Virus record (IMG/VR): IMGVR_UViG_2711768073_000021
Strand: one strand, 5' to 3'
DNA: 6,531 nt
DNA from: a virus
Taxonomy: Duplodnaviria > Heunggongvirae > Uroviricota > Caudoviricetes
Below are positions 1 to 6,531 of the stretch, piece after piece. The position numbers and the translations under genes are program-made. Within the stretch, counting starts at the first letter, position 1, and each line of letters opens with the position of its first letter. The notes under the pieces are model-generated. The model was not told the DNA's origin, made no database searches, and was given only the letters and a program-made list of their open reading frames with translations.

Positions 1-111
1 CAGCTGCTTACCGCGCTTCGTGCGCTGCTGTTAAGCCGCAAGAATCCGTTTGGCGATATCAAATCTGATGGCACGGTGAAAACGGCTCTCGAAAACCTTG
101 GTTTGGGAGAA
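1..111. repeat. Inverted repeat, left arm; encodes the 3' end of a tail-fibre constant region and ends in crossover site A
   Basis: Bases 1..111 are the exact reverse complement of 2031..2141 (111/111 by direct comparison). The arm reaches the first base of the window, so its true length is unknown. Confidence 0.9.
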
Positions 112-552
112 GCGGCAAAACGAAATGTGGGCAACGGGGAAAACCAAATCCCTGATATGTCTTTCTGGACGGTTACTGGTGGCAATGGAAATTTTGTGAT
201 TCGTCAACCTGACGGGCTAATCATTCAGATGGTTACTGTAAGTATAAGCGGTCCAGTGGCGATGAATGGAATGACTGATAATGCTTATGCCATTACAGGT
301 TCTAATAAGTCTTATATTGCCACAGCCACATTGCCCTTTGTATTTCCTAATAAGGTGCTGGGCGTTATCCCTCTGGTATCAACAACAGCTTATGGTGGTG
401 TATCCAGTAATATTACAGGTTCATACGCGACGGCGGTTTGTTCTTTTGCCGCTGTCAGGGGGAATAATACGATTGTGTTCAAAGTCGACAAACCACTGAA
501 TGCAGCCTTTCCTTCAGATACCAGCGTCTCAGCGTTAATCATTGGACGGTAA
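1..552 (+). CDS. Tail fibre protein, 5'-partial at window edge: constant-region fragment fused in frame to variable C-terminal domain Sv
   Basis: Frame 1 is open from base 1 to TAA at 550..552; the ORF track starts it at GTG 76. Translation of 1..111 ([37 protein letters not shown]) is identical to the constant part of the minus-strand tail fibre 1572..2333. After the crossover site it diverges into a Gly/Ser/Thr-rich domain typical of fibre tips. Confidence 0.8.
86..111. other. Serine-invertase crossover site A (hix/gix/pix-like, 12-2-12)
   Basis: CTCTCGAAAACC-TT-GGTTTGGGAGAA is an imperfect palindrome of two 12-bp half-sites around a 2-bp core. It resembles the hix/gix consensus as recalled (TTnTCnnAAACC half-sites), lies at the inner boundary of the inverted repeat, and is in frame within tail-fibre coding sequence. 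Confidence 0.75.
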
Positions 553-554
553 GA

Positions 555-998
555 ATGAACTCAGTATTCTTTTCACCCGCAAGTAAAAGTTTTTATCTGC
601 AAGAATTGTTTCCAGAATATGAGGATGCGGGAACGCTTCCTGATGATGTTATTGAAATTACCAGAGAAACATATGAGCAATTTCTTGGGCTGCATCCAGA
701 AGGGAAAGAAATTGGCGCTGACAGTTCAGGACGGCCAATATGGATTAATTCCCCGCCGCCTTCAAAAGAGGATGAGATGCTGGCGGCTGAAATGAAAAAG
801 ATATCTTTGGTTTCAGAAGTCAATACCTACATCAATACCCATCAGTGGCCTGGCAAAGCTGCTATTGGTCGTCTGAAAGGTTACGAGCTGGAACAATATA
901 ATTTATGGCTGGATTATCTGGACGCACTGGAACTGGTTGATACCTCCAGTGCTCCAGATATTGAATGGCCTACGCCTCCGGTAGTTCAGGCCAGATGA
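555..998 (+). CDS. Tail fibre assembly chaperone (Tfa / Mu U / P2 G-like), partner of Sv
   Basis: ATG lies 2 nt after the Sv stop. C-terminus [24 protein letters not shown] matches the conserved Tfa C-terminal motif (DTSxAPDIEWP). It overlaps the opposing tfa 3' end convergently (970..998). Confidence 0.85.
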   Translation: MNSVFFSPASKSFYLQELFPEYEDAGTLPDDVIEITRETYEQFLGLHPEGKEIGADSSGRPIWINSPPPSKEDEMLAAEMKKISLVSEVNTYINTHQWPGKAAIGRLKGYELEQYNLWLDYLDALELVDTSSAPDIEWPTPPVVQAR

Positions 999-1575
999 CA
1001 TCCGGCGCGGTGCTGGTATCTGTTGCAGTCACCGCGTCAATGTAATCCAGCACAGCGTTAAGCCGGGTTGTTTCTGCCTGCGTCAGCTTCCGCCCGGCCT
1101 GCAATTTCAGCTGAATCAGACTAATGGAAGCCATAGCAGCATCAATCAGTGACTGGCGCCGTACTTCTGCCGCGTCTACTGCGGCGTTATGCTGTGCCTC
1201 AGTATCGGTCACCCATTTCTCACCATCCCATTTATCGTATGACGTTAACGGGGCGATAGTGGTTGTATTTTCAGGGTAATCACCCGGAACTGTGATTTCT
1301 TTTGATTCTCCTGTTTCGGTGCTATAGACGATTTCACCGCGATGGTCTGGCACATATTCCCATGAGTTAAAATCTGCAGAACGGCAAATTGCATAACCAG
1401 CTTTATATGAGCCAGGAGCATCTAAACAGGAACATGCCGGGATACCAACACCCACAGCAAGATATTCAGTTGATGTGGAAATATATTCCCGTGTTTCACC
1501 ATCATAATTATAAACGGTAATGTCTCCGGCCTTTGTGGCGATGAGTTCATTATTTAATACAGCTTTACTTATCAT
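970..1575 (-). CDS. Tail fibre assembly chaperone (Tfa-like), partner of Sv'
   Basis: ATGA start/stop overlap with the upstream tail-fibre gene. Contains ...KWVTDTEAQ... and C-terminal [24 protein letters not shown], characteristic of the lambda Tfa / Mu U family. Confidence 0.85.
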
Positions 1576-2333
1576 GCAGCCCTCACAATATAATTAAAGG
1601 CGATGTTACGGGAGCGGGTTTCAGATGCTGTGCGAACTGAGCGAGATGCGTCGAATGTCCAGTTATAAGCGCCATAACCCTCAATAATTTCGGCTTCCTT
1701 TAGACCTGTAGATAATACTTGCCCATGTTGACTAAATGGCCCTGAACTAAGTACGTCTCTAAAAAGCTGGGTACGCCCAAAAGAACCAACAATATTCTGA
1801 ATTGCATCATTCTGTGCAGATAATAAGTTACGACCAGAGTCAATCCCGCGCCCATCATCCCAGCCACGAATAAATTCACCGCGTAAATCTGGTAATTTTA
1901 ATGTTGGGTAAGCCTTTGCCAGATTTGGGTACTTTTCAGAAGAAAATACTGCTCCGTTACATTTTAGCCACCCCGTTGGCGGAGTGGCGGAAGGCCACGG
2001 AACAGGCACACCAACGGGTAATGCCGAACCTTCTCCCAAACCAAGGTTTTCGAGAGCCGTTTTCACCGTGCCATCAGATTTGATATCGCCAAACGGATTC
2101 TTGCGGCTTAACAGCAGCGCACGAAGCGCGGTAAGCAGCTGGTCATGCCGCCCCTTCTCCAGGCTGGCACCGGATGCCTCCACCACGCTGCAGAGTTCTT
2201 CCTGCAACATGTCAAAGTAGTCATCATCCAGATCGGTGGCAGGTGTGCCGGTCTGGGGGTTACCACGGGTAAAACCGTTCTTACCCGCGCCGAACTTATC
2301 CTTCTGCGCGGTTTTCGTGTCTATACGATGCAT
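1572..2333 (-). CDS. Tail fibre protein (constant N-terminal part Sc + variable C-terminal part Sv' with phage tail-collar-like motif)
   Basis: 253 aa. N-terminus [21 protein letters not shown]... is recalled as typical of e14/lambdoid-prophage side tail fibre proteins. The reading frame passes through crossover site B (ALENLGLGE). The C-terminal part has [11 protein letters not shown]...[13 protein letters not shown], resembling the T4 gp12-type tail collar motif. Tightly coupled to the upstream gene (3-nt gap) and downstream tfa (ATGA overlap). Confidence 0.9.
2031..2056. other. Serine-invertase crossover site B
   Basis: TTCTCCCAAACC-AA-GGTTTTCGAGAG, the reverse complement of site A, in inverted orientation relative to A. 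Confidence 0.75.
2031..2141. repeat. Inverted repeat, right arm
   Basis: Exact reverse complement of 1..111. Whether identity continues beyond 2141 cannot be tested, because the partner would lie left of base 1. Confidence 0.9.
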
Positions 2334-2336
2334 GGA

Positions 2337-4146
<1,810 letters not shown>

Positions 4147-4158
4147 CCACTACAAGAC

Positions 4159-4184
4159 TTCTCCCAAACCAACGTTTATGAAAA
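4159..4184. other. Third serine-invertase crossover site (site C), invertase-proximal, orphaned next to the IS
   Basis: TTCTCCCAAACC-AA-CGTTTATGAAAA. The first 14 bp (inner half plus core) are identical to site B; the other half-site is distinct. Starts 4 bp after the IS right terminus and ends 55 bp upstream of the invertase ATG. Same orientation as B, inverted relative to A. Confidence 0.65.
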
Positions 4185-4238
4185 TGCAGAAATAACGAGC
4201 AAATGGCATCATTCCTGCTTTTGTCAGGGAGATCTACC

Positions 4239-4793
4239 ATGCTTATTGGCTATGTACGTGTGTCAACAAATGACCAGAACACAGATCTACAACGTAATGC
4301 GCTGAACTGTGCAGGATGCGAGCTGATTTTTGAAGACAAGATAAGCGGTACAAAGTCCGAAAGGCCTGGACTGAAAAAACTGCTCAGGACATTATCGGCA
4401 GGTGACACTCTGGTTGTCTGGAAGCTGGATCGGCTGGGGCGTAGTATGCGGCATCTGGTCATTCTGGTTGAGGAGTTGCGCGAACGAGGCATCAACTTTC
4501 GTAGTCTGACGGATTCAATTGATACTAGTACCCCAATGGGGCGCTTTTTCTTTCATGTGATGGGTGCCCTGGCTGAAATGGAGCGTGAACTGATTGTTGA
4601 ACGAACAAAAGCTGGACTGGAAGCTGCTCGCGCACAGGGACGAATTGGTGGACGTAAGCCAAAACTAACGGATGAGCAGTGGGCGCAGGCAGGGAGACTA
4701 ATCGCTGCAGGAGAAACGCGTCAGCGCGTAGCATTAATTTATGATGTAGGAGTGTCAACACTATACCGAAAATTTCCTGTAGGCAGGGATTAG
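4239..4793 (+). CDS. Site-specific DNA invertase, serine recombinase of the Gin/Pin/Hin/Cin family
   Basis: MLIGYVRVSTNDQNTDLQRNAL...GDTLVVWKLDRLGRSMRHL...GINFRSLTDSIDTSTPMGRFFFHVMGALAEMERELIVERT...GRIGGRKPKLT... carries the catalytic Ser in YVRVS and a C-terminal HTH, near-identical in pattern to Gin/Pin as recalled. RBS AGGGAGA is 6 nt upstream of ATG 4239. The ORF-track start at 4203 is a probable over-extension. Confidence 0.92.
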   Translation: MLIGYVRVSTNDQNTDLQRNALNCAGCELIFEDKISGTKSERPGLKKLLRTLSAGDTLVVWKLDRLGRSMRHLVILVEELRERGINFRSLTDSIDTSTPMGRFFFHVMGALAEMERELIVERTKAGLEAARAQGRIGGRKPKLTDEQWAQAGRLIAAGETRQRVALIYDVGVSTLYRKFPVGRD

Positions 4794-5022
4794 ACATGAT
4801 GCAGGCCACCGGTAAAGATTGATGCTGGCAGACAGCACAACTTTACAGCCCAAACTGTCGAGCTCTTGGGAACTCAGACACTAGCCATATATCGGCTCTC
4901 TTAGAGCCGGTGAACCCTCTAAATCAATTCGCCCAGAATGATATTTTTGTACTGGGCAGACCATCACAATTCGGTAATAGACAGCATCAAAGGCAGCTAA
5001 ATAAACCTTAGGCTTATCCACA

Positions 5023-6531
5023 TTACATATCTGCATCAGGAGCCAGTGGGTGTCGAAGATAATGTTCCTGAAGAACATCTGCAATTGATTTCAGATTGTC
5101 TTCCTTAACAATGGAAAGAATGTCACGTCCATTTTTCCAGTCTAATGATATTTTTGTATTTCTTTGCTTCTGATGAAGCAGCAGCTCAAGTGCTTCAGGT
5201 TCAAAATCTGATGAGGTCCAGAATGAAAAAGTCATTTTTCGGTCACGGTACACATGAATCTGACTGTAGAATTTTCTGATGCGTTGAACTCGTTCGAGCC
5301 ACTTTTCGATCATTTCGACTGAAATTAGTCGCTTAACTTCATAGCCTTTACATTCGTAGCACTTAATTTCTGCTTCGCCTCTAAAACCAATCACATCTAT
5401 TTCAGCCTTACCTGCCTCGGTACTGATTTGTTTATTCAAGTCCACAGTGCTGACATTTTGGGTTTTCAGTACGATGTGACCAACTAACATTTCAAACATT
5501 ACGCCTCTTATATTGATTGCGGCGCCTTCAATCCTCGTAAGTCCTTTAAATAGTTCGTTGATTTTTTCTGGGTTTGCTGCCGCAATAGCACTGGCACGAT
5601 TAAGAGTATTTAATAAACTGGACAGTAGTGCTGAAATGTCTTGACCAAGTAGGTTAGATACTGTTGTAGCCATTACACCAGCTTGTTTCGCAAGGCGAAA
5701 GGCTTCTGGATCAAAACGTTCTGCAATCAGCATAGCTAGAAACGGGCGAGTATTTCGCATATTTCTGCATCGCTGTACTTTCGTGAGATAGGTTTGGATG
5801 CTTTTGCTATCTAAATCATTGTATATGACATCTGCAACAATGAAGCCATTACTCATTTCACCTTTTTGTACTGTTGCTAAAGGCATAATATATGACGGAG
5901 CACATATGTCCCAATGGTGATGGCTAAATGAAGGCATATTCTGAGAGTTACGGACTTGGACCTTATTAAAGCTGCCAAGGCTATTGTGTTTAATCCAGTC
6001 AGCTACACCTTTAATGAGAATATCTTCAACCAGCAATTGGTTTCGGACATGTTGGGTATCCGTTACCCCGTTAATATTATTTATGTAAGTAACAAGACAA
6101 TCCCCCAAAACGACATCAACTTCCCTACGCAGAACTGAACCTTTAAGCAATTGCGCTTCAAGACGGCTTGACGCAATGTGTCCCTTCAGTTTGTCCGGAC
6201 TCCCTGAAACCTTGCTAAAAAGATATGTCGGGATCGCCCCTTGATAAGGGTGGAAAGCGAAAAAGGTGTGAGCATAGACTGTTCTTGCATTTACATGACT
6301 TTCAAGCAATGCAATCCAATATCGACGAGAGTTATAGTCCTTTGTCAGATAGAGAAATGCTTCATTTTTGGGCAAAGAAAAATGAGTAAAACGTTGAACA
6401 TCACCTCCAACGCGGGAGATTCGCTGTCTGGCGTTAACTTCTGTTAGGCCATTGGCTATCAGTTTTTCTCTTAAGGCAGATGAGGACATCGGCCCGTAGA
6501 TATGTAGAAGTTGTTCTATGGATGGTTTCAT
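5023..6531 (-). CDS. Hypothetical 502-aa protein with putative C-terminal PD-(D/E)xK (Mrr-catalytic-like) nuclease motif; candidate restriction/defence cargo; N-terminus may extend beyond window
   Basis: Long uninterrupted minus-strand ORF in visibly AT-rich DNA, convergent with the invertase. Residues ~340..410 read FEMLVGHIVL...AEIDVIGFRGEAEIKCYECKGYEVKRLISVEMIEKWL, matching the hhhD...(D/E)xK layout of Mrr_cat-type nucleases (D379, E393-x-K395; GAA TGT AAA is the reverse complement of 5347..5355). No Walker A motif seen. The ATG sits exactly at the window end, so the true start is uncertain. Confidence 0.7.
   Translation of the reverse strand: MKPSIEQLLHIYGPMSSSALREKLIANGLTEVNARQRISRVGGDVQRFTHFSLPKNEAFLYLTKDYNSRRYWIALLESHVNARTVYAHTFFAFHPYQGAIPTYLFSKVSGSPDKLKGHIASSRLEAQLLKGSVLRREVDVVLGDCLVTYINNINGVTDTQHVRNQLLVEDILIKGVADWIKHNSLGSFNKVQVRNSQNMPSFSHHHWDICAPSYIMPLATVQKGEMSNGFIVADVIYNDLDSKSIQTYLTKVQRCRNMRNTRPFLAMLIAERFDPEAFRLAKQAGVMATTVSNLLGQDISALLSSLLNTLNRASAIAAANPEKINELFKGLTRIEGAAINIRGVMFEMLVGHIVLKTQNVSTVDLNKQISTEAGKAEIDVIGFRGEAEIKCYECKGYEVKRLISVEMIEKWLERVQRIRKFYSQIHVYRDRKMTFSFWTSSDFEPEALELLLHQKQRNTKISLDWKNGRDILSIVKEDNLKSIADVLQEHYLRHPLAPDADM

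Follow-up and report, generated by a model that had tools for sequence, protein, structure and literature searches.

A 112-nt inverted repeat beside a Pin-type invertible tail-fibre segment is probably an assembly overhang of a switch present in both orientations

The 6,531-nt stretch of DNA analysed here, called the window throughout, carries an invertible tail-fibre segment, and a perfect inverted repeat reaches from its crossover sites outward into the coding sequence of the fibre constant region (Sc). The question raised by this locus is whether the constant region is present twice. The original prediction, made from the sequence alone, had named three ways in which such a repeat could arise: two facing tail-fibre genes that share a constant region, an inverted duplication, or a boundary of the window or of the contig that fell inside a repeat. 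If the second constant region were real, the locus would represent an unusual two-gene variant of the classic phase-variation system.

The repeat, the surrounding genes and their relatives

A repeat search of the 6.5-kb window placed the two arms of the perfect inverted repeat at 1-112 (plus strand) and 2030-2141 (minus strand). The arms are 112 nt long and 100% complementary, and a perfect repeat of this length in 6.5 kb is far beyond what chance can produce. In the left arm, the final 85 nt of the Sc coding sequence are followed by the 26-bp crossover site A (86-111, plus strand; CTCTCGAAAACC TT GGTTTGGGAGAA) and 1 further nt, and the right arm lies within a complete fibre gene. The repeat beyond the crossover site, which had been claimed at a length 1 nt shorter, is confirmed by this search, as are the 85 nt of constant-region coding sequence outside the site. 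The plus-strand reading frame is open from base 1, again as predicted, and runs on to a stop at 550-552.

Beyond site A this frame (1-552) enters the variable tip Sv1 (113-552, plus strand), which is in frame with Sc, shows a weak match to Gp53-like_C and is identical to the 247-aa fibre of one related locus (L003). The tip is followed by the tail-fibre assembly chaperone tfa1 (555-998, plus strand; Pfam Caudo_TAP, E=6e-27), which faces a second, tfaE-like chaperone, tfa2 (970-1575, minus strand; Caudo_TAP, E=6e-32). The convergent 3' ends of tfa1 and tfa2 overlap by 29 nt (970-998), an overlap kept in all related loci. The complete tail fibre of 253 aa is encoded on the minus strand at 1572-2333, has a Pfam Collar domain and contains crossover site B (2031-2056, written on the plus strand as TTCTCCCAAACC AA GGTTTTCGAGAG). 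Its Sc runs from 2333 down to 2056 and is fused via site B to the tip Sv2, and exactly this 253-aa protein is found in many standard loci. Next to it lies the baseplate gene ymfQ of the Mu gp48 family (2337-2909, minus strand; Pfam Phage_Mu_Gp48). The 5' end of ymfQ is replaced by the end of an IS3-family insertion sequence (IS) of 1258 bp (2897-4154, plus strand; ends TGTAGTGG...CCACTACA), and the junction between the truncated gene (ymfQ') and the IS is also found in complete genomes. The IS3-family element lacks a target-site duplication at both loci where we met it, with GGA/GTG as flanks beside ssrA and GCG/AGG in the e14 prophage of strain 602687. In both places (IS copies at L001, 11805-13062, and L034, 9851-11108) prophage genes have been lost next to the element. 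In the e14 of 602687 the IS removed the stretch from the end of tfa3 through the tail terminator and left pinE with a single crossover site.

The IS is followed at 4155-4157 by 'AG' and a scaffold gap, and the sequence restarts at 4158. A third crossover site, site C, lies on the invertase side at 4159-4184 (plus strand; TTCTCCCAAACC AA CGTTTATGAAAA), direct with respect to site B and inverted with respect to site A. It precedes the gene of a serine DNA invertase of the Pin family with 184 aa (4239-4793, plus strand; Pfam Resolvase, E=8.6e-52, and HTH_7, E=2.9e-14). Between the invertase gene and ssrA there is an open reading frame of 502 aa (5023-6531, minus strand), which is part of the surrounding locus and not of the repeat. 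A Pfam search matched this frame to no family, and a weak LmuA-like match covers its C-terminal third only (E=0.007). The corresponding cargo slot is occupied elsewhere by mcrA in e14 (L034), by a GmrSD enzyme (L014) and by an HNH protein (L019); a role of the 502-aa frame in defence against phages is possible.

Starting from the encoded proteins and from BLAST, we collected dozens of related loci, and the extension of the repeat was measured in 24 of them. All fetched loci share one layout, in the order ymfQ, Sc, site, tip with chaperone, opposed chaperone with tip, site and pin, and they sit either beside ssrA or at the e14 position. Every one of the 24 loci has one constant region. In none of these loci does the perfect inverted repeat continue outward past the central dinucleotide (0 nt), and the 100 nt beyond the dinucleotide are 24-30% identical, which is the level of random sequence. 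Outward identity of 97-98 nt, up to the contig end, occurs only in the window and its source contig. None of the complete E. coli genomes (n=5,426) matches the layout of the window over more than 62% of its length. Searches with the 502-aa, 253-aa and 190-aa proteins, together with whole-window BLAST against E. coli genomes, phages and plasmids, returned no genome or contig with the window layout other than one sister scaffold, which is described below. Two copies of the constant region, whether as facing fibre genes or as an inverted duplication, are thus left without support from either the related loci or the complete genomes.

The segment itself is found in both orientations among the closest relatives. 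Strain 602687 is identical to the window over 93-4154, and PS1Thumoskin9 is identical to 1-2049 joined to 2030-4154, in each case except for the half-site bases 97 and 2045. These two genomes carry the same IS-truncated remnant with the segment in opposite orientations, and each has one Sc. The differing bases 97 and 2045 flank the central TT/AA, where differences would be expected for this invertase family. The segment also lies in opposite orientations in two near-identical chromosomes from one project (L020 and L024; 5,150,578 and 5,150,576 nt), which is direct evidence that the switch flips on laboratory time scales.

Contig ends, the scaffold gap and the assembly graph

The source of the window is the draft contig CYGD01000038.1 (GCA_001284425.1), of which it covers positions 2-6532. 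The left arm takes up the initial 113 nt of this contig, and the repeat measured in the contig is accordingly 113 nt. The partial 183-aa product of 1-552 is known from a single record, which is placed at position 1 of CYGD01000038.1. The left arm had been thought to be cut only by the edge of the window. It is indeed cut there, but not by the window alone, as the contig itself ends at this point. The third of the predicted possibilities, a boundary inside the repeat, is therefore seen directly in a contig that starts 1 nt before window base 1. The second anomaly of the source record is a single N, which is located at window position 4157 in the text ...CCACTACAAG N CTTCTCCC... (in a shorter form, ...GACCACTACAAG N CTTCTCCCAAACC...). 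The 'A' that stands at 4157 in the window is a substitute for this N that came from the preparation of the window, and it created a false junction between the IS and a crossover site. Since base 4157 is an N, the abutment of the IS to site C is a scaffold join and not sequence.

We built a toy compacted de Bruijn graph from pieces of the window, with one Sc and with the segment in a 1:1 mixture of orientations. At k=113 the graph gave unitigs at 1-209 (the Sc-Sv1 junction), 1933-2141 on the minus strand (the Sc-Sv2 junction), 98-2044 (the segment), 2030-4154 on the minus strand (Sc-ymfQ'-IS) and 4158-6531 (the invertase side). This single-Sc graph reproduces the end of the arm at 2141, the restart after the N at 4158 and, with an offset of 1 nt, the start of the contig, which begins 1 nt earlier than the unitig. 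With k=69, the end of the Sc-Sv2 junction unitig falls at 2097 and coincides exactly with the contig end in the sister scaffold. When the scaffold was taken literally, with two Sc, a direct contact of the IS with site C and another IS copy elsewhere, the invertase-side unitig began at 4045 and not at 4158. The restart at 4158 means that at least two alternative sequences lie beyond the invertase-side site and that they differ from the first base. The first bases of Sv1 (C) and Sv2 (G) do differ, as such a restart requires. Contig start, gap and sister-contig end thus sit as expected for a single-copy locus in mixed orientation, which speaks against the two copies of the constant region that had been proposed. 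A widely used pipeline runs Velvet at k of 66-90% of the read length, followed by SSPACE and 120 rounds of GapFiller (PMC5320598). According to its authors, both SSPACE and GapFiller are greedy and liable to false joins (PMC5320598). Values of k=113 and k=69 both fall within the 66-90% range of this pipeline (PMC5320598), which may be the one behind the present assemblies.

Taken together, the 112-nt repeat is most probably an assembly overhang from a culture in which an ordinary tail-fibre switch was present in both orientations, and the artefact would then report active inversion. The true locus would read ymfQ'-Sc-site-(Sv1 tfa1 / tfa2 Sv2)-site-pin-ORF502-ssrA. Pin, or another Pin-family enzyme of the strain, would flip the 1.9-kb segment and produce a mixed culture, from which reads for both the Sc-Sv1 and the Sc-Sv2 junctions would be obtained. 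A de Bruijn assembler with a large k could then pass from Sc into the segment via one junction and leave it via the other Sc junction. It would halt there because the next node was Sc, which had already been used, and a terminal overhang of about k-1 would be left, corresponding to the 113-nt arm. A scaffolding step may subsequently have attached the invertase-side contig to the segment across a negative gap, for which a single N was entered. Gap-filling may then have prolonged the loose Sc end through ymfQ' and the IS, up to the point at which the sequences beside the different IS copies part. Runaway gap-filling of this kind would be the source of the 2.1 kb (Sc-ymfQ'-IS) that stands between the segment and the gap. 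On this reading, flipping of the switch in the culture that was sequenced is indirectly attested by the artefact.

The sister scaffold CYDP01000040.1 (GCA_001283505.1; L033) presents the same locus in another form. Segment, constant region with ymfQ' and invertase-side sequence are identical to the window wherever both cover them, and only 985 nt of the IS are present. The scaffold is a mirror image of the window: it reads IS-ymfQ'-Sc-site-Sv1...Sv2-site, continues for 48 nt into the reverse complement of Sc and reaches a contig end. The overhang amounts to 68 nt when it is counted from the inner boundary of the repeat (window position 2030). The scaffold also contains one n, and one of its contig edges is found 985 nt into the IS, a place where no break of the graph would be expected and where capped iterative gap extension would produce one. 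At 12790-12815 the crossover site is garbled to the T-rich aatttgtctttttttttt in place of aaccttctcccaaaccaa, at equal length, which suggests a gap fill on low evidence. We regard the mirror overhang, the n, the garbled site and the edge inside the IS as signs of greedy gap extension. The invertase-side contig of this scaffold runs on into a third tip, Sv3-tfa3, which in 602687 is the tip of the e14 pinE locus. The invertase-side flank of this locus and that of the e14 pinE locus have 72 identical nt in common. Sv3-tfa3 was considered as a third cassette of the locus and set aside, as it probably reflects a chimeric path through the shared 72 nt at small k.

The segment is troublesome for assemblers in other records as well. 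Three 'circular plasmids' of 1.92 kb in the plasmid collection are exactly window 110-2032. These records from finished assemblies (CP148528.1, NZ_CP148539.1 and NZ_CP148540.1; 1920-1923 bp) contain the invertible segment only, and chromosomes from the same project (CP148535 and CP148531) already hold the full locus. The plasmid records look like redundant loops of the assembly graph that were deposited as plasmids, and such spurious plasmids mean that assemblers demonstrably mishandle the segment. Many partial forms, encoded on contigs of about 1.9 kb that hold only the segment, were found among 40 sampled members of the protein cluster, and in this sample the fibre form with an Sc overhang occurs in CYGD01000038.1 alone. 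A perfect inverted repeat that touches the end of a draft contig next to an invertible segment may accordingly be read as the signature of a mixed-orientation culture and not of a gene duplication.

Alternative origins of the repeat

The alternative that survives best is a real inverted duplication, in which the invertible segment is flanked at either end by Sc, perhaps together with ymfQ' and the IS. Recombination of site A with site B would then swap tips between two facing fibre genes and would not act as an on/off switch of one gene. Several observations are in keeping with such an arrangement. The Sc-Sv1 and Sc-Sv2 junctions are both present in the assembly, and both sister assemblies re-enter Sc after the segment. 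At window position 66 the left arm has T, which is the Sc allele of the right arm and not that of the prophages that carry this invertase-side sequence, although the identity of the two arms is equally expected if there is one single copy. The modelled single-copy graph keeps the Sc junction unitigs apart from the segment unitig, and the Sc-side branch would therefore have to be taken at both ends, with both invertase-side branches dropped or out-voted. The graph modelled with two Sc at k=113 delivers 1-2141 as one unitig with no pruning of branches and no extra assumption. The invertase-side contig, in addition, was scaffolded to the end of the IS and not to the end of the segment, for which the overhang account needs the assumption of runaway gap-filling.

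On the other side, the second copy is known from two short-read scaffolds, in each of which it breaks off at a contig end after only about k-1 nt, and it is absent from all related loci and from the complete genomes. The start of the invertase-side contig weighs more directly against a duplication. It coincides exactly with the point at which Sv1 and Sv2 diverge (4158), which implies that the invertase-side site sees both ends of the segment, and this is incompatible with Sc flanking the segment on both sides. No contig or complete genome was found in which this segment is joined directly to this invertase-side sequence, and for this reason the true layout proposed above is one that we infer. 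A duplication keeps a small share of the probability because of this missing join, the separate junction unitigs and the 1-nt offset; we consider it unlikely. As a second constant region, the repeat is best regarded as no real feature, and the system in which it occurs is one that is already known.

An exchange between two prophages is less likely again, to the point of being very improbable. Pin-mediated inversion between a site of a second, complete prophage and a site of the remnant could place a foreign ymfQ-Sc to the left of the segment and so create two facing fibre genes. The lineage does have several Pin-type loci, such as the e14 of 602687 with pinE and its lone site, and the window's invertase-side sequence is that of a prophage type other than the usual partner of the remnant. 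The left arm, however, has the Sc allele of the remnant with T at 66, whereas G stands at this position in each of the three sequenced prophages of the other type. The arrangement occurs in no complete genome, and the exchange would leave the coincidences of the gap and the unitig borders unexplained. Models with tandem prophages or with recombination between IS copies were also rejected, as the layout does not follow from any single event and a foreign Sc is at odds with the allele seen.

The idea that the IS had moved or rearranged DNA so as to abut site C, with A, B and C forming a three-site system of nested inversions, is refuted as stated and retains next to no credence: the window text does read IS end, 3 nt and site, and the IS copies of the lineage do lack target duplications and lie at deletion junctions, but the third of the 3 nt is an N in the source, so that no such junction exists, and a real junction would be expected to assemble 110 nt into the IS. 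The 30-nt junction of the IS and site C had no match in viral, species-representative or metagenome contigs or in the 5,426 complete E. coli genomes, and was thus missing from every collection searched. Among all fetched loci and the viral contigs, GGGAGAAGTCT is the start of no known tip cassette, and its sole viral match is unrelated and due to chance. Four models that started from the IS-AGA-site junction fell once its third base proved to be an N: an IS-mediated inversion, an adjacent deletion, the integration by Pin of a circle made by the transposase, and a tip cassette with GLGEV at its start. The N at 4157 explains the absence of the junction from all collections, the three unmatched bases and the failure of the models of rearrangement by the IS or Pin. 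A scaffold N that is silently swapped for a base can make false junctions, in the present case an apparent IS beside a recombination site.

Comparison with known invertible segments

Read as an overhang, the repeat leaves little new biology: a decayed prophage carries a Pin-type switch of textbook form. The locus is an ordinary invertible tail-fibre segment similar to the e14 P segment, and it belongs to a defective prophage remnant with Mu-like tail genes beside ssrA. The gene order and gene families of the e14 P segment of E. coli K-12 (ymfQ, stfP, tfaP, tfaE, stfE, pinE) are shared by all complete relatives, whose genes carry the RefSeq annotations ymfQ, tfaE and pinE. As in the P segment, the serine invertase encoded at 4239-4793 has its resolvase domain at the N-terminus and an HTH at the C-terminus, the 26-bp sites (86-111, 2031-2056 and 4159-4184) bound the segment in inverted orientation with exchange at the central dinucleotide, which bases 97 and 2045 flank, and one constant N-terminus lies outside a segment with opposed tips and chaperones inside, an arrangement seen in the 24 related loci. 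Both orientations occur as well, in 602687 versus PS1Thumoskin9 and in L020 versus L024. The invertase gene lies just outside the segment by the distal site in all relatives, and in the window it is joined to the rest only across the scaffold N. The differences from e14 are that the remnant sits here beside ssrA, that ymfQ is cut by an IS3-family element and that a 502-aa orphan, and not mcrA, lies beyond pin. The extra Sc arm is no property of the family; it is confined to the terminal 113 nt of the contig.

The locus resembles the G segment of Mu with Gin, the Hin system of Salmonella and the Cin system of the P1 C segment in its serine invertase (Resolvase and HTH_7), its 26-bp sites, the exchange at the central dinucleotide and one constant region outside with alternative C-terminal tips inside, whereas the sequences of fibre and chaperone differ. 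In the C segment of P1, which also inverts tail-fibre sequences, inverted repeats of 0.6 kb lie beside the crossover sites and inside the segment. The present locus has no such long internal repeats, as identity extends inward for only 15 nt. Its extra identity, in contrast to that of P1, lies outside the sites, reaches only up to the contig end and is missing in all relatives. A further likeness is to the hairpins and loops that the graphs of short-read or hybrid assemblies form at invertible segments, from which we see no substantial difference: the same flanking node is reached from both ends of the segment, the overhang has a length of about k-1, and breakpoints coincide with the borders of unitigs.
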